Notes: generated by a model from the letters alone, not told the origin. 24,669 nt of DNA from Methanosarcinaceae archaeon (GCA_021106765.1 JAIOTO010000108.1:1-24669); one strand, 5' to 3'. Shown: positions 10,960 through 20,383, counted from the stretch's first letter. Program-made: numbers and translations.

Positions 10960-12600
10960 TTACCGTTTCGAACCAAATATCTTACTGAAAAGTTTTCCTT
11001 TTTCCCCATCCTGCTGTCGACGGGGTTCCCTTTTAGGAGGAGGTGTGAGCTGCTCCTCATCGGACCTATTCTCGACAGTAACCGGGGATGGAGGTTTCGT
11101 TGTGGAAGCTTTTGCAACAGGACCTTTTGCAACAGACCATGAACCTTTGAGAACATTCACAGATTCACCACCATGTTTTGATTTCCTTACACGCACATCC
11201 ACAAGAATAGGCCGTTCGATATCATTGCTCACAAGCATAGCCACACCTGGCGGCAGACGAATAAGCTCGTCCTCAACATACGAATTCACGCCTTCGAGCC
11301 CTTTGCTGATCGACTTGAGATCATTGGGATTTGTCACCTTCATTATTATCTGGGTACCGCACTGTGATAGGACATTCTTATCAACCCTGGCCGGACGTTG
11401 GGATATGATCATCATTCCCAGACCGAATTTACGTCCCTCGGACGCAATGGTTCTCAACACCTCGGTACTTGCCGTTTTACGGAATCCTTTTTCAGGAGCA
11501 AAGTTGTGTGCCTCCTCTACTACCAGCATGCCAGGGGGGATGCGTCCCATCTTTCGTGCTTCGAACAGTGATTCACATAACCGGGCCACGATCATGCTCT
11601 GGATATCAGGTGGCACTCCCTTAAAATCGACCACAGACACCCGTCCCCTCTGCATTAGTTCCTCCACCGACGTAGGACTTGTGGAAAGGATGTCCATCTC
11701 ACGTATGTCCTCCAGCAGACTTATCACATTCCATCTGGCCTTACTCTCGTTATTACCAACCTCGATGATGATATCATCAAGGGAATACGTCTCCATCTCT
11801 GCCCGGAGCTTCTGTACCGACTCATACAGGATACCCATATGTGTACTAGTATAGTTGTCCGGGAAAATCGCCGTCAGCTCCTTCACCTTCGGGCTTATGC
11901 CATTTAACCGGAATACCTTATCAGCTGATGGATTGATCGCCTTGTTCGCAGGAGTATATACTGTCACTTTCGAACCATACCCCTTTGCAGAAACACCATA
12001 TTTCTTGAAATCTGCATTCTTGGAAGCTTTCTCCTTCAATGAAGAATACTCACCATGAGGGTCAATGATCAACAGAGGAATATCCCGATCGATCAATTCT
12101 TCAAGCAGGACGGCAGCAGTATATGATTTTCCACTTCCGGTCTTCGCAAGGATGCTGCAATGTTTCTGGACAAGACTGTTCACATTCAGGTGGATGGGAA
12201 TATCCGTACCATTCAGAAGTCCAATGTACATCTCGTTCCCGGACAGACCGAGCACAGTGCGAATGAGATCATCATCTGCCTTATATATAGGATCTCCCGG
12301 ACTGAATGGCGTCAGCGGTGCCTTCAGGAGACCAGAACGATCCCTGGTACCTATAACCGTTGCCTCTGCCAGGATACGGTCTCCGCTCTTGTCCTTTCGG
12401 CTACCCCCTTTTGCATCCTCGAACGAGTATGAGTCACTGGAACGAGTAATGGAAAGAACATGTGCAAGGACCCAGCCATCAGTCTCATGCCAAGCCTTAA
12501 CGTATTCTCCCCTCATAACTGCAGTACTATCTGATATTAGGAACTTTAAATCTAGTGTTCCAGTCTCTCCAAATATAACGCCTACTGAACCGCTTACCAT
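10960..12600 (-). CDS. HerA-like ATPase of the FtsK-HerA superfamily (HAS-barrel plus DUF87 ATPase, 546 aa) with a disordered basic C-terminal tail
   Basis: Walker A is ILAKTGSGKSYTAAV and Walker B is MLVVEEAHNFAP. An N-terminal HAS-barrel-like segment is present. The C-terminal ~60 aa are Pro/Lys/Arg rich. No NurA partner lies adjacent. Confidence 0.78.
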   Translation of the reverse strand: MVSGSVGVIFGETGTLDLKFLISDSTAVMRGEYVKAWHETDGWVLAHVLSITRSSDSYSFEDAKGGSRKDKSGDRILAEATVIGTRDRSGLLKAPLTPFSPGDPIYKADDDLIRTVLGLSGNEMYIGLLNGTDIPIHLNVNSLVQKHCSILAKTGSGKSYTAAVLLEELIDRDIPLLIIDPHGEYSSLKEKASKNADFKKYGVSAKGYGSKVTVYTPANKAINPSADKVFRLNGISPKVKELTAIFPDNYTSTHMGILYESVQKLRAEMETYSLDDIIIEVGNNESKARWNVISLLEDIREMDILSTSPTSVEELMQRGRVSVVDFKGVPPDIQSMIVARLCESLFEARKMGRIPPGMLVVEEAHNFAPEKGFRKTASTEVLRTIASEGRKFGLGMMIISQRPARVDKNVLSQCGTQIIMKVTNPNDLKSISKGLEGVNSYVEDELIRLPPGVAMLVSNDIERPILVDVRVRKSKHGGESVNVLKGSWSVAKGPVAKASTTKPPSPVTVENRSDEEQLTPPPKREPRRQQDGEKGKLFSKIFGSKR

Positions 12601-12664: not shown

Positions 12665-13468
12665 TCAGGCCTCTGTCAGATGCAAGATCTCTTTGGGCGC
12701 ATCTGCCAGTTTTACGAGAGCTTCGGCCTCGATGAAATGCAACGATGCCGGTATCACAAGTATATGCAGCGGCGCTCCGAGGTCCACATCTATCAGGGAC
12801 AGTGCGAAATCCGCCCGAACAGTGGGATTCTCAGAACCTGCGCGTGCAATTCCAACAGCAAGACAGTTCTCCATCACACCCTCTGAGCGCCGGGATTCCA
12901 TTTCAAGTAGTAGCTCAAGTGCCCTGTTGACCGTCATGAAACCCCTATCCTTGTCGATATCCAGAAAAACAGCGGTGTGAAGTCCATTTTCCATATTCAT
13001 TTTTATCGTGTCATAAGGGGTCTCTGAGATAATGGTCTTGCCACGGCTGCTGGTGTACGGATGAGGGACAGTAGCTGACTTGCCAAATCGGTAGTTCTGC
13101 AATCCAGACAGACCACAGATGGCCGATGCGATGGATGCACCATGGATCAATGCGGTATTGATACCCAGATCAATTGCACGCAGCCGAAGGTCCACATGGG
13201 TAGTGGAGACCATTGTGTCTCCGCCGGTCAGGAAAACTACGTCCTTATCCTTTGCCTCATGCAACCAGTCAGGATGTTGTTCCACATCCTCACGAGTGAG
13301 CACATGGATCTTCTTCTGGTAGAGTTCCTCCATCTTCTCGATATCCGTGCCCAACAGATTGGATGTATAGAACTCCACATAGACCTTATCAGCATTCTGG
13401 ATCGTTCGTAAACCTTTCAGGGAAATATCAGTCTCATCAAAAAGACCAAGTCCTACAAAATATAGCAT
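12665..13468 (-). CDS. dph5: Diphthine synthase (267 aa)
   Basis: The N-terminus MLYFVGLGLFDETDISLKGL and the tetrapyrrole-methylase fold motifs (VVFLTGGD, IHGASIASAI) are typical of archaeal and eukaryotic Dph5. Confidence 0.9.
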   Translation of the reverse strand: MLYFVGLGLFDETDISLKGLRTIQNADKVYVEFYTSNLLGTDIEKMEELYQKKIHVLTREDVEQHPDWLHEAKDKDVVFLTGGDTMVSTTHVDLRLRAIDLGINTALIHGASIASAICGLSGLQNYRFGKSATVPHPYTSSRGKTIISETPYDTIKMNMENGLHTAVFLDIDKDRGFMTVNRALELLLEMESRRSEGVMENCLAVGIARAGSENPTVRADFALSLIDVDLGAPLHILVIPASLHFIEAEALVKLADAPKEILHLTEA

Positions 13469-13615: not shown

Positions 13616-15160
13616 TCACTCAAGCTTTGCACCACATTCCATACAGAATTTCTCATCATCCATTGCTTCCCTGCCACACTGTGGACAAAGGCGTTTTTGT
13701 GCACCTATTTTCGAACGCTGTATGACACTGTCCTGGATCGTTGTTCTATTGATGTTGTACTGTGTGAGACCCTCATCCACAAATATCCTGATATCGATCC
13801 TCCTTTCGATCTCTTCAAGCATCTTGTGATAGAAACCGGTAAGTGCATCTTCCTTCTCAGCCCACGTTTTCAGGATCAGACGGGATCTTCGTTTGCCCAC
13901 CACTTCAACGTAGGCTGCATACCGCATGTCTGCAATACCCTCCGCATAGAACCTTGCAACACCTGTGAACAACTGCGGAGTGGAAGTTATTTCGGGTTTG
14001 ACCATATACATGTTCATATCCCTGAGGACCCTTGTAACGATGTCGAACAGGTTCTCGGAAGGTATTCCGAGATCTTTTGAATCCTCCTCGGCCATAAGCA
14101 TATCACTGACAGCCTGTCTCCATGAACCTTCATCAACCTCTTTGATCTTGAAGACCGGACATATGATAGATATCATCCTGCTGTTCATATCACATCTCTT
14201 ATGTTTTTTGGTGTTATAGTCATAATAACTGATATCACCAGAGACATTACATTCGCCACATTCCCCTGTGGGTCTTATCTTGAACGTAACAGTCTTGCCT
14301 TCATCCGGTTCAAGCATGGAAATGGATAATTCCTTAGTTCTTAGCATGAATACATCAGGAACTAAAAGGTTGATCCTGATGTCACCTATCGGTTCTGTGG
14401 TGTGGTTCTCTACCTTGACCTTATAGAATATCATGGCACCTTTATAATAAAAGGCAGATTTTACTTTAACAAAGCCTGACTCGACCTTTGAGGATGCGGG
14501 TCCTTGTGTTCTTTGTTTGACGGGTGCAGGAACTGTTTTTCCTGACATGGGATTTAGTGATGGAGACGGAACCCCTTTTTTAGATGAAGACTTACTCTCC
14601 CTTCTACGTTTTATCCGTCTTCCCACTTTTCTTGCCACTATAAAAACAAGTATCCAGAACACCACTACCATGACAATACCAACGGCATCCTCCACATTTT
14701 GATCCGTTGAAGAAACATCGGAAACCGGATCGTAAACATAAGTCGGACGGTAGTCAACATCGGCCTTTTCAGATACTGCCGGTATGACAGTAGAACCTGA
14801 ATTACCCATCTTGGAATAATGGTAGATATTTGATATCACAACATAATCAGCATATGAATCTGATCTTGTCTTTACAATATCAAAACTCAGGGTCAGGTAA
14901 TCGTCATCATAATAAAAGCTATCGTCCTTATAATAAATCCAATCGATCAGGACTATCCGGTCTCGTGTTATTGATAACTGCACATAATCATAATATGTAT
15001 CCACAGAAATAACGTTCAGGTAATACCTATCGCTGAGCTCAATTGTTTCCCCTTCCGTCAGTATATACTCATCCACCGCCGGGGCTATTGTAGCATTGAC
15101 AAATATCAGGTTGATCAACACAAACACTTTCAAAATGGTCCCTAGGTCTTTGATCCTCAA
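13616..15160 (-). CDS. Type-I membrane protein: signal peptide, Tyr/Asp-rich extracellular domain, one TM helix, basic juxtamembrane stretch, cytoplasmic domain, and a C-terminal double zinc ribbon (514 aa, TTG start)
   Basis: The N-terminal hydrophobic segment is ILKVFVLINLIFVNATIAPA. The TM helix is VGIVMVVVFWILVFIVA, followed by RRIKRRRESK. The C-terminus is CPQCGREAMDDEKFCMECGAKLE. An SD (AGGTG) lies 9 nt upstream of TTG at 15160. The first in-frame ATG is about 118 codons in, so the exact start is uncertain. Confidence 0.65.
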   Translation of the reverse strand: MRIKDLGTILKVFVLINLIFVNATIAPAVDEYILTEGETIELSDRYYLNVISVDTYYDYVQLSITRDRIVLIDWIYYKDDSFYYDDDYLTLSFDIVKTRSDSYADYVVISNIYHYSKMGNSGSTVIPAVSEKADVDYRPTYVYDPVSDVSSTDQNVEDAVGIVMVVVFWILVFIVARKVGRRIKRRRESKSSSKKGVPSPSLNPMSGKTVPAPVKQRTQGPASSKVESGFVKVKSAFYYKGAMIFYKVKVENHTTEPIGDIRINLLVPDVFMLRTKELSISMLEPDEGKTVTFKIRPTGECGECNVSGDISYYDYNTKKHKRCDMNSRMISIICPVFKIKEVDEGSWRQAVSDMLMAEEDSKDLGIPSENLFDIVTRVLRDMNMYMVKPEITSTPQLFTGVARFYAEGIADMRYAAYVEVVGKRRSRLILKTWAEKEDALTGFYHKMLEEIERRIDIRIFVDEGLTQYNINRTTIQDSVIQRSKIGAQKRLCPQCGREAMDDEKFCMECGAKLE

Positions 15161-15476: not shown

Positions 15477-16769
15477 TCACATCTTAGTTCCACATTGCCC
15501 ACAGAAGTTAGCTTCAGCCGGTATTGTCGTGCCGCAGGCTGGACATTTGCGAACGCTGGGAGACATTTTTGCCTGTGCAGCACCCATCATCTTCGAGTCC
15601 AGATCCTGTCTTCGATAGGAATCTTCACGTTCACGGTCTTCCACTTTCATCATAAGATCGAGTTTGTCATCCTTTGCTCTTGCCTCGCTTTCCTTGACCT
15701 TGGCCAGTGCTGCGATCTGTTCCGGTGATAGACTGCCAAACTCGCGCCCTTCGCTGATGGTCTTTGCCGTATCAGCACCACCCGCCTCAGTAACAGTTCT
15801 GACATATTCCATATCACGTGCGTGTTCCCGATCCTGCATATCCTGTTCCACTTCAAGCTCGGCGCGCACACCTCTGGCTTTGGAAAGATGCATGTCTTCT
15901 TTTAACTTAAGGGCTTCACGGGCTGCCCTGATGTCCGATTCATCCTCCAGACGTTCGATCTCAAGCTGTGATTTCACACCTTTTAACTGCTGATCCCTCT
16001 CAAAATCCACCCCGGCAGAAACTGTTGCCTGCTCTGCACGAACTCCTGCTACATCCACTCTCCCCGCACGTTCATGATCACCTTCAATGGAAAGTGTATC
16101 CATCTCTTTGAGCTCTTCATGGGTCTGGTATTCGTTCCTCTTCGCCATGACCTCTGCATAGCTTCCAAGATCCCATTGCACCGTGTACTTCATCAATTCA
16201 AGTCCCCACATGGTAAGGGTGGACTTGAGTTGCATCTCCAGTTCGTTCTCCATTGTAAGTTGAAGATCCCGGTTACCGTAGATGTTCTCGATACTCACCT
16301 GTCTTATCTCAGGTTCCAGTACTCTGGTGATAGTCTCGCTCTTAAGATGCTGGTAGATATCCTGAATGGAAAGTGTCCTCTCACCGTTCTTAGCAGGAGT
16401 TGTATAAGAAAAGAACATCTGGAAAAAATGCTTTGGGTCCTGGATCCTGAACCGCAAGAGACCTTTGCACCCCACGTTCTGATCGTCAGAGGTCCACATA
16501 TCAGCGTATTCCCATTCAAGATCCTTTACGGACGTATCCATGAGTGCAACATCGACATCTGCCCTTATGTTACCTGGTTTGAACAAACCACCTACACGCA
16601 GTTTGCCACTATCGATTATTTCTTCGACCACTCCATTCTTGATCATAACGGCCTTTTCGTTGGGGGAAAGTATGATCGATTTGGAGAACACACCGCTTAC
16701 ATCTCTTTTTGATATCACACGGGCAATGTCATCGGACTGCTTTTTCCATTTGAATACCATATTTAGCAC
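15477..16769 (-). CDS. SPFH/band-7-like domain protein with a long charged coiled-coil region and a C-terminal double zinc ribbon (430 aa)
   Basis: The N-terminal ~210 aa have SPFH-like motifs (SPNEKAVMIKNGVVEEII, TSDDQNVGCKGLLRFRIQDPKHF, WGLELMKYTVQWDL). The central ~170 aa are E/R/D/K-rich and predicted coiled coil. The C-terminus is CPACGTTIPAEANFCGQCGTKM. An SD (AGGTG) lies 9 nt upstream of the ATG. Confidence 0.7.
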   Translation of the reverse strand: MLNMVFKWKKQSDDIARVISKRDVSGVFSKSIILSPNEKAVMIKNGVVEEIIDSGKLRVGGLFKPGNIRADVDVALMDTSVKDLEWEYADMWTSDDQNVGCKGLLRFRIQDPKHFFQMFFSYTTPAKNGERTLSIQDIYQHLKSETITRVLEPEIRQVSIENIYGNRDLQLTMENELEMQLKSTLTMWGLELMKYTVQWDLGSYAEVMAKRNEYQTHEELKEMDTLSIEGDHERAGRVDVAGVRAEQATVSAGVDFERDQQLKGVKSQLEIERLEDESDIRAAREALKLKEDMHLSKARGVRAELEVEQDMQDREHARDMEYVRTVTEAGGADTAKTISEGREFGSLSPEQIAALAKVKESEARAKDDKLDLMMKVEDREREDSYRRQDLDSKMMGAAQAKMSPSVRKCPACGTTIPAEANFCGQCGTKM

Positions 16770-16856
16770 ACCTATTATGTTCCTTGATCTTCTGCACCTG
16801 TAGAAAATGAGTTTCCTTATTTACATGTATATAGCAAGTATTATATATAGTGTTTT

Positions 16857-16872
16857 CCATTGTATACAATGG
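16857..16872. promoter_or_regulatory. Perfect 16-bp palindrome CCATTGTATACAATGG in the divergent promoter region, a candidate operator
   Basis: The element is exactly self-complementary. It lies just downstream of the TATA-like box TTATATATAG (16841-16850) and about 32 nt upstream of the start of the small RHH-like gene that heads the ESCRT-like operon. Confidence 0.5.
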
Positions 16873-16903
16873 TATATGTTATAGTATATCAAGCGGAGAT
16901 ATT

Positions 16904-17059
16904 ATGAAAAGATCCTACCCAGTGAGCGCAAGAGTCTCAGAGGATATTAAGCAATATTTAAGTGGACTTGTGGAAATGGGAATGGCAATTAATACATCTG
17001 AAGCATTGAAATTATGCATAAGATATGCCAAACAAAAGAAAATGGAGGAGGAACTCTAA
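16904..17059 (+). CDS. Small ribbon-helix-helix (CopG/Arc-like) putative transcriptional regulator (51 aa)
   Basis: The predicted beta-strand (SYPVSARVSEDI) followed by two helices (KQYLSGLVEMG and TSEALKLCIRYAKQ) fits the RHH pattern. An SD (GGAGAT) lies 5 nt upstream of ATG at 16904; the longer ORF starting at 16850 lacks an SD. Its stop TAA abuts the next ATG, which implies translational coupling. Confidence 0.55.
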   Translation: MKRSYPVSARVSEDIKQYLSGLVEMGMAINTSEALKLCIRYAKQKKMEEEL

Positions 17060-17629
17060 ATGGGACTTACGAATCCGTTCAAGAAAGTGTCACCTGAAGA
17101 GCTGAAAACAAAACTTGCAATATCAGAGCAGAGATTGAGCGCCCGCGAGAACGAACTGATCAAAAAGCGCCAGAAGGCACGTGAACAGGCAAAGGATGCA
17201 CTCAACAGCGGCAATGACCGCGAATTCAGAGTAGCATCGCGTCGTCACTCCATGGTAGATGGACAGGTCAACACCATCAGCAGTATGGTGGAGATGGCAC
17301 AATCCATGGAAGATGTCATAGAGATGGAAACCGGTCTGAAAGAGGTCGTTGAGATCGGAGATAATCTTGGAAAATGGCAAAAACAGCTTGGATTTGATAC
17401 TGCCAAATTGGAGGGTGCAGTCACCAACATCCGCACATCAATGGAAAAGGTGAACAGTGCAACAAATATGATGACCTCGTCCATGGATGCTGCTATGTCT
17501 GGTGGAAATGAACTTTCTGATATGCAGGATTCCCTCAGGGCTGAGCTGCTGGCAGAACTCAGCAGTGATACCGTGTCTGAGGACAATTTATCAAAGAAGA
17601 TCGAATCTGAGATGAAAGAGAGTGAGTGA
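17060..17629 (+). CDS. ESCRT-III/Snf7-family protein (CHMP/Vps2-like helical hairpin core, 189 aa) with a C-terminal MIM-like amphipathic helix
   Basis: The N-terminus MGLTNPFKK, the basic helix-1 (ELIKKRQKAREQAKDALNSGNDREFRVASRRHSMVDGQV) and the following helices track CHMP2/Vps2 motif by motif. The C-terminal acidic region holds DMQDSLRAELLAEL, which resembles MIM1. A GGAGGAGG SD lies 8 nt upstream. Confidence 0.72.
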   Translation: MGLTNPFKKVSPEELKTKLAISEQRLSARENELIKKRQKAREQAKDALNSGNDREFRVASRRHSMVDGQVNTISSMVEMAQSMEDVIEMETGLKEVVEIGDNLGKWQKQLGFDTAKLEGAVTNIRTSMEKVNSATNMMTSSMDAAMSGGNELSDMQDSLRAELLAELSSDTVSEDNLSKKIESEMKESE

Positions 17630-17700: not shown

Positions 17701-18852
17701 TTGGAGTCTGCAAGTTCACTGGCGGCACAAGCCCGCGGGTATGCAAAAGCTGCAAGAACCTTAGAAGATGATAACGAGAAGGCGCGGGCAAGGGAGCTCT
17801 ACCTGAAGGCAGCTAAGTTCTACAACGAAGCATCCCTGGTAACAACTGACAAGACCGACAGGAACACACAGCGCGACCTTGCAGAACATCTTCTCGATAA
17901 GGCACAGTCCCTCAAACGCTCCGGTACCCGGTATTCGGGTTCAGGAGTGAAGGAAGAAAGCGGGGATACTGACGAATCCGCATTATCTGAGGATGACCTT
18001 ATTATGAAACATACCCCAAATATCGGTTTCTCCGATATTGGTGGTCTCGAAACTGTTAAAGACGATATCAGGAAGGCTATTATCTATCCTTTTACCCATA
18101 CAGAACTCTACAAGTTATACGGACAGAAAGCAGGCGAGGGCATCCTGCTCCACGGTCCACCGGGCTGCGGTAAGACCATGATGGCAAAGGCGGCTGCAAA
18201 GGAATGCGGTGCGGATTTCATCAGTGTGAAGACCAGCAGCATTGTGAGCAAGTGGGTGGGTGCATCTGAAAAGAACATAAAGAAGGTCTTTGAAACTGCA
18301 CGTCGTTGCGAGAAGGCGATCATATTCTTCGATGAAATAGATTCCATTGCAGGGCGCCGCAGCGAGGCTGAGGATTACGCCAAACGTGTGGTGAACGAGC
18401 TCCTTGCCCAGATGGATGGTGTCGATACCGCTGATGATAAACTTCTGATACTTGCTGCAACCAACGAGCCCTGGGCCATCGATCCAGCCCTTCGCCGGCC
18501 CGGACGTTTCAGCAAACTCGTGTACATACCTGAGCCTGATCGCGATGCCCGTGATACGATCTTCAAGATCAACCTTAAGAAAAGACCCATTGCCAATGAT
18601 GTGGATGCTGGTCGACTGGCCAAGATAACAGAATCATATTCCGGCGCCGACATTGCTGCCATCTGTAAGGAGGCGGCAGACATACCATTGGGCGAAGCGT
18701 TGCGCGGAGGAGAGCCGCGCAAGATCGAAATGAGAGATTTTGTGACTGTGCTGGAGAGCCGAAAACCTTCTATACGCAGCTGGTATGCGGAAGCAAAAAA
18801 AGAGATCAGGAAAAGCGGGGAAGAGGATGTTTTCGGAGAGGTCTTCAAGTAA
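17701..18852 (+). CDS. Vps4/CdvC-like AAA+ ATPase with an N-terminal MIT domain (meiotic-clade AAA, 383 aa, TTG start)
   Basis: The N-terminal ~75 aa form a three-helix pattern that aligns by eye with the Vps4 MIT domain (AAQARGYAKAARTLEDDNEKARARELYLKAAKFYNEA...RDLAEHLLDKAQSLKR). Walker A is GPPGCGKT, Walker B is IIFFDEID, and SKWVGASEK is the meiotic-clade signature. An SD (GGAGGG) lies 6 nt upstream of TTG. Confidence 0.85.
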   Translation: MESASSLAAQARGYAKAARTLEDDNEKARARELYLKAAKFYNEASLVTTDKTDRNTQRDLAEHLLDKAQSLKRSGTRYSGSGVKEESGDTDESALSEDDLIMKHTPNIGFSDIGGLETVKDDIRKAIIYPFTHTELYKLYGQKAGEGILLHGPPGCGKTMMAKAAAKECGADFISVKTSSIVSKWVGASEKNIKKVFETARRCEKAIIFFDEIDSIAGRRSEAEDYAKRVVNELLAQMDGVDTADDKLLILAATNEPWAIDPALRRPGRFSKLVYIPEPDRDARDTIFKINLKKRPIANDVDAGRLAKITESYSGADIAAICKEAADIPLGEALRGGEPRKIEMRDFVTVLESRKPSIRSWYAEAKKEIRKSGEEDVFGEVFK

Positions 18853-18889: not shown

Positions 18890-19738
18890 ATGACCATTCA
18901 CGAAACCATCCCAGAAGACCTCCAGAGAACCAACCGGAAGACCGTGGTCAGCAATCTGAAAGAGGTCCATACGATAGTTGAACGACTTATCCATCAGACC
19001 TATCGGCAAAAGGATGCAGCTGCAAGTTCCGAACTTCGGGAGATCAGGAACAAGGTGACTTCAATGATTTCGGAGATAGAGAATACAGATCTCGATACCT
19101 TCGGTGGCAGGAAAGGTTCCCTGGATGATTTCTATGATGCCGAAAAGCAGTTCATCGAAAACTCTACCATACTGAAAAAAGAAATGGAAGATGCACTTGC
19201 CTCCGGGAAGGGGGGAGATACATTCTCACTGGACAATATGGTGGATGAACTGGGAAAAAGTTTTAACGAACGGGTGATCCTCACAGGGGAACATCTGCAG
19301 GAATACAGGGCACAGCAAGTGGAATCCAAAAGGGCAAGGGATGAAGCACAAGCCATCAAGACTGAGACAGTAACCGAAACTGAGACCAAAACCGAAACCA
19401 TTGAACAGCCTGAGCCAACTCCTGATCCTGTAGAACCTATCGGGAATATGACCATGGAAATGGATACGGAAACCCTCTCAAACTCTATAACTACATCAAC
19501 ACACTCGAACAGAAATACTCGAAATGTCAGCCGGATATCTCAAATAATGGGAATTACATATCAAACAAAACATGGAAGGTCGACCACACGAACAGGAGGA
19601 TTCGTGGTGTGGTCAAGGACGGCATGTTCAAGACCCCGCTTGTGCTTGAGACGTTCTGGCATCCCAGAGATGACGTACGGGATATCATCCAGTTCGTTCA
19701 GTCAAAAGCAAATGCGATTGGCAGAAACCAGTACATGA
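18890..19738 (+). CDS. Coiled-coil protein with an acidic Thr/Glu/Pro-rich linker; the 3' end is uncertain and a frameshift into the next ORF is probable
   Basis: The first ~185 aa look like genuine coding sequence (helical, charged), ending in TETVTETETKTETIEQPEPTPDPVEP. Beyond about nt 19470 this frame becomes S/R/T-rich and out-of-frame-looking, while frame +1 is open from 19426 and reads as bona fide protein sequence. Confidence 0.5.
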   Translation: MTIHETIPEDLQRTNRKTVVSNLKEVHTIVERLIHQTYRQKDAAASSELREIRNKVTSMISEIENTDLDTFGGRKGSLDDFYDAEKQFIENSTILKKEMEDALASGKGGDTFSLDNMVDELGKSFNERVILTGEHLQEYRAQQVESKRARDEAQAIKTETVTETETKTETIEQPEPTPDPVEPIGNMTMEMDTETLSNSITTSTHSNRNTRNVSRISQIMGITYQTKHGRSTTRTGGFVVWSRTACSRPRLCLRRSGIPEMTYGISSSSFSQKQMRLAETST

Positions 19739-20106
19739 GCCTGTGTCTTGTCAATGATGTCTGGGAAGAAGATATCATTGAGTGGGCAAAGGATTTTACA
19801 CATCAGCGTCTCATCCTGTACCTGTACGATTTGAAAAACGACATTCTCATCGTTAATGAAACACTTGCTGCTGCAGATCACTTCAGGTTCTGGCACACCA
19901 GGGAACTACAGAGAACAACTCTTGATGAGAAAATAGAGGATTACATTAATGAGATAGAGTATTTTACTGTGAAGGATGTTGCCGACAGGTTCGGACTCAA
20001 CCGGTCCGGTTCAGAGGATCTGCTTAAGGGACTGGTGAAGAAGGGGATAATCGTTGATGTGGGCTTTGGCGGAGATGCGAATTATACAAAAACGAAGCAG
20101 CAGTGA
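19609..20106 (+). CDS. Winged-helix protein (C-terminal wH motif FTVKDVADRFGLNRSGSEDLLKGLVKKGIIV); possibly the C-terminal portion of the preceding gene
   Basis: An AGGAGGA SD lies 8 nt upstream of the GTG at 19609. However, the reading frame is open and protein-like for another ~60 codons upstream, to 19426. The C-terminal ~45 aa form a classic helix-turn-helix-wing pattern. Confidence 0.55.
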   Translation: MVKDGMFKTPLVLETFWHPRDDVRDIIQFVQSKANAIGRNQYMSLCLVNDVWEEDIIEWAKDFTHQRLILYLYDLKNDILIVNETLAAADHFRFWHTRELQRTTLDEKIEDYINEIEYFTVKDVADRFGLNRSGSEDLLKGLVKKGIIVDVGFGGDANYTKTKQQ

Positions 20107-20109
20107 TTG

Positions 20110-20116
20110 CTTTTTT
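20110..20116 (+). terminator. T-run (CTTTTTTG) immediately after the stop of the last gene of the ESCRT-like operon
   Basis: Archaeal termination at oligo-T tracts. The run lies 4 nt after the TGA at 20104-20106. Confidence 0.45.
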
Positions 20117-20383
20117 GATGTGGACTGATCTTTAAATTCGTTCGTCGTGTAGAATCATATCAGGGTTCTCCATCACCGGGTGATGTCTTCTTTCGTCAGC
20201 GCCGTAGTCGCGGGAGCACAACGACAGAACATAGCATAGTCGTTCCAGCCACAACCATGATGGAACCTGTAGGAGATACGGAACTATGCGTAATGTATTT
20301 ATAGAACTATAAACAGTTAGATTCATTCATATACGAAAGTATCACTCATTGCACTAATTATATTATCAGGAGGTTTAAGATCA

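Follow-up and report, generated by a model that had tools for sequence, protein, structure and literature searches.

A one-base loss splits the winged-helix gene of a Meth_adaptin ESCRT operon in a Methanosarcinaceae contig

The window analyzed here is a 24,669-nucleotide (nt) contig of a Methanosarcinaceae archaeon (GCA_021106765.1, JAIOTO010000108.1). Positions 18890–20106 of its plus strand are one gene encoding a 405-amino-acid (aa) protein, broken by the loss of a single base in this metagenome-assembled contig. [quoted passage not shown] Taken together, the data make it very probable that this is a frameshifted single gene at the end of a Meth_adaptin ESCRT operon, with a four-part product for which an ESCRT adaptor role is plausible.

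Results

Two open frames belong to a single gene

The annotated 282-aa open reading frame (ORF) occupies 18890–19738 in frame 2, and frame 1 is open from 19426 to a stop codon at 20104–20106 and contains a listed ORF with a GTG start at 19609. A first-pass annotation, made from the sequence alone, had described this layout along with an AGGAGGA 8 nt before the GTG, and re-reading of the sequence gave the same picture. It had also proposed a −1 frameshift or indel, with a single-base indel fusing the frames into a protein of about 405 aa. This proposal was borne out when the joined frames were used to search 5.8 billion proteins: the best match was a protein of 405 aa (P0001) with 99% identity and 100% coverage. 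Fifteen further relatives were matched, 14 of them full-length, namely P0002 (405 aa, 76% identity) and 13 others of 389–411 aa with 44–51% identity. The only truncated matches were a 291-aa fragment and the 282-aa ORF of the window itself (P0014, deposited as MCD4704161.1, locus tag K8R64_07720, ‘Methanosarcinaceae archaeon’).

The 24 full-length orthologous proteins are 376–433 aa long, and each is a single ORF. The same holds for all nine species-level genome loci of the GTDB set, which come from Methanosarcinaceae metagenome-assembled genomes (MAGs), Ca. Methanovorans (ANME-3), Methanococcoides vulcani, M. alaskense and one Methanolobus species. Comparison with orthologues, named at the outset as the way to check the fusion, therefore returned a single fused ORF throughout, with no two-gene locus among the proteins and genome loci examined. 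The family profile aligns to the 282-aa product over residues 1–198 only, and protein searches found no homologue of its S/R/T-rich tail, in agreement with the earlier suggestion that the end of this ORF degenerates into out-of-frame sequence.

The gene can accordingly be divided at the break. Its 5′ part (18890–19479, frame 2) comprises codons 1–196 and the TC of Ser197 and encodes a protein identical to P0001 residues 1–197. The 3′ part (19480–20106, frame 1) encodes Lys198–Gln405 followed by the stop codon and matches P0001 residues 198–405 except for an Ile/Val difference at nt 19954. The out-of-frame tail of the annotated ORF (19481–19738) is not genuine coding sequence.

One T is missing from codon 197

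Three contigs from independent assemblies, L001 (JGI), L002 (ENA) and L003 (Logan), carry the gene for P0001; they are 99.4–99.7% identical to the window at the nucleotide level and all encode the intact 405-aa protein. In the DNA alignment, the window reads CCCTCTC-AAACTC where these contigs read CCCTCTCTAAACTC. The T-containing form of the site is CTCTCTAAAC and the T-less form CTCTCAAAC; across the break the P0001 sequence runs ...MEMDTETLSKLYNYINTLEQ.... A single T is thus absent from the window between 19479 and 19480; in the relatives it completes codon Ser197 (TCT) as its third base, and its loss moves the reading frame by −1. The indel had been expected in the GGAAACCC run (19468–19475), and the alignment moves it 4 nt downstream. 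Over 10,750 nt the window and L001 are 99.75% identical, with 26 substitutions and the deletion as the sole gap; within the gene, the only other difference is A/G at 19954 (Ile to Val). We conclude that 18890–20106 is one gene because the fused construct matches a 405-aa protein, the orthologues are all single ORFs and three assemblies carry the T.

Alternative explanations of the break

Under programmed −1 ribosomal frameshifting, ribosomes would pass from frame 2 into frame 1 near 19478–19482 and make the complete protein without any change of sequence, and a slip after TCA (19478–19480), with A19480 re-read as the start of AAA, would reproduce the orthologous LSKLY exactly. The site, C TCA AAC, is nevertheless not an X XXY YYZ slippery heptamer, and the shift is unneeded in every orthologue, including the three that carry the extra T in otherwise nearly identical DNA. 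The single-frame orthologues and the absence of a slippery heptamer rule this mechanism out for practical purposes. Even less credible, to the point of being negligible, is an arrangement of two genes, with a coiled-coil protein starting at 18890 and a separate 165-aa winged-helix protein starting at GTG 19609, an alternative that had been raised on account of the Shine–Dalgarno-like AGGAGGA (19594–19600). The stretch that includes this motif and the GTG (19594–19611) codes for NRRIRGV within the long protein, and its DNA is not conserved in L004, L007–L010 and L012, which marks it as incidental coding sequence with no translation start. Moreover, frame 1 ahead of 19609 codes for the invariant family residues Y200, N204, L206, E207, P215, G221 and W229, and a product beginning at 19609 would, according to the structural model described below, start within strand β2 of the central domain. 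All orthologues are single ORFs, and a 165- or 160-aa protein of this kind is absent from the record.

The break in the single gene is an ordinary sequence defect or a strain-level pseudogene, not a sign of a new system. We regard an assembly or consensus error and a genuine inactivating mutation of the strain as having roughly even odds, with the artefact slightly favoured. If the deletion is real, for which the chances are somewhat short of even, the gene would be a pseudogene, or a split gene yielding the helical bundle and linker only, and the ESCRT adaptor would have been lost in this population. The contig does represent a distinct strain, with 26 single-nucleotide differences from L001 in 10.75 kb, 10 of them clustered at the 3′ end of the Vps4 gene; the site lies outside any homopolymer, the commonest context of sequencing indels; and the gene evolves fastest in the operon, consistent with weaker constraint. 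Set against this, a single conservative substitution (I to V) besides the indel gives no sign of decay, the neighbouring ESCRT genes are all intact, and the gene itself is unbroken in three further assemblies of this species. Metagenome assembly is also known to introduce single-base indels where strains vary. The substitution cluster, which packs 10 of the 26 differences from L001 into 64 nt (18672–18735), points to a short tract of recombination, or to an assembly chimeric between strains, close to the gene with the frameshift.

Predicted structure of the 405-aa protein

The structure of the protein was predicted with AlphaFold2, using a full-length model built from a 23-sequence alignment (mean predicted local distance difference test score, pLDDT, 78.7) and a second model of the C-terminal 215 residues (pLDDT 87.8, predicted template modelling score 0.81). 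The models divide the protein into four: a helical bundle at the N-terminus, an acidic linker that is disordered, a globular alpha/beta domain and a single winged helix at the C-terminus. The bundle contains five helices (residues 8–157; 18911–19360) and in structure comparison resembles generic helical bundles only, such as the coiled-coil domains of NLR proteins and designed repeats. The TE/PEP-rich linker (residues 158–190; 19361–19459) is predicted to be disordered, with block-mean pLDDT values of 27–34 and values below 50 throughout segment 157–190, and its length and composition differ between orthologues.

The central alpha/beta domain (residues 193–336; 19466–19896), which spans the deletion site and is covered by the C-terminal model, has the predicted topology α0-β1β2β3-α1-β4-α2-β5β6-α3 and carries the conserved motifs YxYxNxLEQKY, PxxSxxGxY, ETxW, SLCL and FWH. 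No PDB structure matched this domain above the level of matches to the winged helix, which dominates the match lists. Its strand order is loosely similar to that of PD-(D/E)xK restriction-endonuclease-like domains, an assignment that we rejected since the family has no conserved D...(D/E)xK residues.

The winged helix (residues 345–401; 19921–20091) has the order H1-H2-H3-β-β in the models, as had been anticipated for the C-terminus. The anticipated tandem of winged helices found no support: in the models one canonical winged helix follows the α-βββ-α-β-α-ββ-α domain, and comparison of the central domain with the winged helix by hhalign revealed no internal repeat, with a probability of at most 1.3%. 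Foldseek searches against the PDB returned nothing at E ≤1e-3 and generic winged-helix matches only. PDB sequence searches with full-length and C-terminal profiles gave nothing significant, and no NCBIfam family covers the 405-aa protein.

The gene closes a conserved ESCRT operon

The first-pass annotation had seen hints of ESCRT in the winged-helix protein, and the locus is indeed an ESCRT locus, with ESCRT-III and Vps4 genes directly upstream. The adjacent gene (17701–18852, plus strand) encodes a Vps4/CdvC-like AAA ATPase of 383 aa, recognized by the Pfam families AAA and AAA_lid_3 and by its conserved synteny; it aligns over its full length to the NCBIfam CdvC model with 244 bits, below the equivalog cutoff. 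Ahead of it, 17060–17629 (plus strand) encodes a divergent, Snf7-like ESCRT-III protein of 189 aa without a fused winged helix. Snf7 is its top Pfam match, nearly full-length but sub-threshold (E 0.01), and a PDB sequence search with this protein gave nothing significant. The protein is 81–93% identical across the family loci, and the gene at the equivalent position in Methanosalsum has been placed in arCOG00454 (PMC10936438). By eye, its C-terminal tail (…DSLRAELLAEL…) has the look of a MIM1-type amphipathic helix, which could bind a MIT-like N-terminus of Vps4.

The first gene of the operon (16904–17059, plus strand) encodes a 51-aa RHH-like protein (MKRSYPVSARVSEDIKQYLSGLVEMG...), and its stop codon abuts the start codon of the ESCRT-III gene. 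This protein is 80–94% identical in L004, L006, L012 and L013, about as conserved as ESCRT-III, and may be an operon regulator or an extra component. It is absent from the published Meth_adaptin gene table for M. zhilinae. Beyond the winged-helix gene, an oligo-T tract (GCTTTTTTGAT; 20110–20120, plus strand) follows the stop codon and probably marks the end of the operon, if it acts as a terminator.

On the minus strand, 15477–16769 encodes a divergent SPFH/Band-7 protein with a C-terminal zinc ribbon, identified by Pfam and synteny and equivalent to arCOG15283. Beside it, 13616–15160 encodes an adaptin-appendage-like protein, also with a C-terminal zinc ribbon (Pfam Zn_Ribbon_1, weak Alpha_adaptinC2), equivalent to arCOG15284. 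Between the divergent SPFH and RHH/ESCRT-III genes lies an AT-rich intergenic region of 134 bp (16770–16903) whose palindrome, TGTATACA, and TATA-like repeats (GTATATGTTATAGTATAT) may serve as a promoter or operator. Farther upstream of the ESCRT cluster on the minus strand are a 267-aa ORF for a tetrapyrrole methylase (12665–13468) and a HerA-type ATPase with DUF87 and a HAS-barrel (10960–12600). The gene order, with the adaptin/zinc-ribbon and SPFH genes divergent from the RHH, ESCRT-III, Vps4 and winged-helix genes, is also found in L001, L004/L005, L012 (Methanococcoides alaskense) and L013.

Relationship to described ESCRT systems

The Meth_adaptin system was defined by Makarova et al. 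(2024, mBio; PMC10936438), with Methanosalsum zhilinae as the example, and comprises adaptin-appendage proteins (arCOG15284), an SPFH/coiled-coil/zinc-ribbon protein (arCOG15283), ESCRT-III and Vps4. We found no subsequent publications on it in a search of the literature. The same paper lists at the M. zhilinae locus a ‘coiled-coil + C-terminal wHTH’ gene, WP_013898572.1 (Table S2), with no arCOG and no mark as a core component (PMC10936438). The window locus agrees with this system both in placement and in architecture: the gene lies directly 3′ of Vps4 in an ESCRT-III–Vps4 operon, with SPFH/zinc-ribbon and adaptin-appendage/zinc-ribbon genes beside it, and its product joins an N-terminal helical/coiled-coil region to a C-terminal winged helix-turn-helix (wHTH). 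The gene for WP_013898572.1 likewise lies directly downstream of Vps4, in an operon flanked by the arCOG15283 and arCOG15284 genes, and the proteins have similar lengths (399 and 405 aa) and the same overall layout. In Methanococcoides and Methanolobus, two members of the Meth_adaptin clade (PMC10936438), the window gene has homologues. It is most likely a member, with a frameshift, of a family that earlier work had recorded in this archaeal ESCRT system. It differs from its Methanosalsum counterpart by the 1-nt deletion, and the central alpha/beta domain goes undescribed in the published account of WP_013898572.1. Where the Methanosalsum locus has a ProX and a GOLD-adaptin gene, the window has unrelated genes, and on this basis the window system appears to be a reduced version.

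The euryarchaeal ‘Main’ clade offers another parallel. Its arCOG09748 proteins, as described, have a helical domain, a coiled coil, a globular central domain and a winged helix (PMC10936438), the same order as in the window protein. They are longer (about 600 aa in Thermococcus), and their partners are a Cas2-like protein and kinases, whereas those of the window gene are SPFH and adaptin-like proteins. In the CdvA/CdvB pair of Sulfolobales, as in the window, a partner that is not ESCRT-III is encoded beside ESCRT-III and Vps4, with a winged helix as the likely contact (PMC10936438). There the winged helix is fused to ESCRT-III (CdvB), whereas in the window it sits on the partner protein. Unlike CdvA, the window protein has no PRC barrel and no E3B peptide, and its N-terminus is all-helical; neither Pfam CdvA nor PRC matched it.

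Archaeal ESCRT loci repeatedly encode winged-helix proteins, which have been proposed to bind ESCRT-III and to be ancestral to ESCRT-II (PMC10936438). The window gene adjoins ESCRT-III and Vps4, and its product gives a sub-threshold match to Pfam EAP30, the family of Vps22 and Vps36, which like Vps25 are ESCRT-II subunits; by analogy drawn from gene context, recruitment of ESCRT-III would be a plausible role shared with ESCRT-II. The proteins differ in that ESCRT-II has two tandem winged helices and the window protein one, and nothing in ESCRT-II corresponds to the N-terminal bundle or the central domain. Membership in the ESCRT-II family by sequence, at which the first-pass annotation had hinted, did not hold up: Pfam EAP30 (PF04157) is the nominal top match but reaches 18.3 bits where the gathering cutoff is 26.8, is seen in 5 of 23 family members and stands on a par with Ribosomal_S25, Pfam ESCRT-II (PF05871) matches one of the 23 (E 0.04), and neither family matches any of 13 distant relatives. 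The Vps25-like residue pattern perceived in the C-terminus likewise found no support in structure comparison, where neither Vps25 nor the CdvB winged helix was among the best 60 matches and generic winged-helix proteins scored equally. The resemblance of the modelled domain to ESCRT-II thus appears to lie at the level of the generic fold.

Distant relatives share the central domain and winged helix

When 1.84 billion representative proteins were searched exhaustively with a profile, only 59 clusters were returned, which range from Methanosarcinaceae to distant archaeal lineages (Thermoplasmatota-type MAGs). Relatives beyond the full-length family (among them P0061, P0064, P0066, P0068, P0069, P0071 and P0074) are 212–555 aa long and have in common with it only the module made of the central domain and the winged helix (profile positions ~145–390). 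At the N-terminus they have a conserved ‘KSIIEQVAEERE’ motif, and they carry between one and four helical repeats of ~100 aa that bear an ‘RGYxVxRLE’ signature; no Pfam family matches these repeats. The short ‘KSIIEQVAEERE’ motif might be a partner-binding peptide. A homologue search seeded with distant relatives was swamped by coiled-coil words and yielded only 3 proteins, and a tblastn search of plasmids with a distant relative gave no match.

Two of these relatives have informative neighbourhoods. P0074 (locus L015; 22% identity) adjoins homologues of ESCRT-III (53% identical), Vps4 (48%) and the adaptin/zinc-ribbon protein (30%), and P0066 (L014), from a Thermoplasmatota MAG, is encoded three genes downstream of an SPFH homologue. 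The module therefore accompanies such ESCRT systems beyond methanogens. That the central domain and winged helix form one conserved module, the mark of an undelineated family of ESCRT adaptors, is a tentative idea that we consider rather unlikely at present.

Discussion

We hypothesize that the window protein acts as an adaptor of the Meth_adaptin system, a role that is plausible by analogy with ESCRT-II. Because the ESCRT-III protein here has no fused winged helix, the winged helix would be supplied in trans and is the probable contact with ESCRT-III, onto which it may dock in a manner that parallels binding of the Vps25 winged helix to Vps20 or of the CdvB winged helix to CdvA. A flexible acidic tether would hold the helical bundle and the alpha/beta domain, which might form oligomers or contact the SPFH and adaptin-like components close to the membrane. 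An adaptor of this kind would confine the polymerisation of ESCRT-III, and its later disassembly by Vps4, to particular places on the membrane.

Several observations weigh against this picture. The linkage of the winged-helix gene to Vps4 is not absolute, with 2.3–3.3 kb of extra DNA between the two in L006 (2730–5000) and L008 (1645–4973), and the gene is less conserved than its neighbours: in L004 its identity is 77% as against 91–94% for ESCRT-III, Vps4 and SPFH, and in L013 it is 35% as against 83% for ESCRT-III and 73% for Vps4. The orthology with WP_013898572.1 is drawn from position, size, architecture and genus distribution, and the adaptor role from gene context and analogy. In the structure comparison of the winged helix, ArsR, MarR, Z-alpha and S25e score at least as high as Vps22 and Vps36, and the generic fold predicted by the models would also fit a DNA- or RNA-binding role. 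The protein could on these grounds be a conventional wHTH transcription factor that controls the ESCRT operon and not an adaptor that binds ESCRT-III. The operon already holds a small, highly conserved candidate regulator in its RHH protein; a multidomain build of 405 aa whose linker is long and disordered does not resemble the compact wHTH regulators of archaea; and the linkage to Vps4 and ESCRT-III is kept in distant relatives. For these reasons we consider a regulatory role improbable. The winged helix is, besides, a recurrent protein-binding module in every described ESCRT system (PMC10936438).

The most direct consequence concerns the public record, in which this locus is represented by a truncated 282-aa ‘hypothetical protein’, MCD4704161.1, with a nonsense tail of 85 residues, while the C-terminal half is unrecorded. 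The correct product is a 405-aa protein of an ESCRT locus. Should the module of the wider family correspond to the ‘globular central domain + wH’ of arCOG09748, most euryarchaeal ESCRT systems would have it in common as their ESCRT-III-recruiting unit, and should the adaptor-module reading be true, the 51-aa RHH protein would count as one more component, so far unlisted. The Meth_adaptin system is a proposed model of the ancestral ESCRT of archaea, and the window case adds a small detail about its winged-helix component, which has a single winged helix behind an alpha/beta domain without a structural match in the PDB and evolves several times faster than ESCRT-III and Vps4, with distant non-methanogen relatives that keep the linkage. 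Current views are not overturned by these results, which in practice correct the annotation and describe the winged-helix component of this ESCRT system somewhat more sharply.

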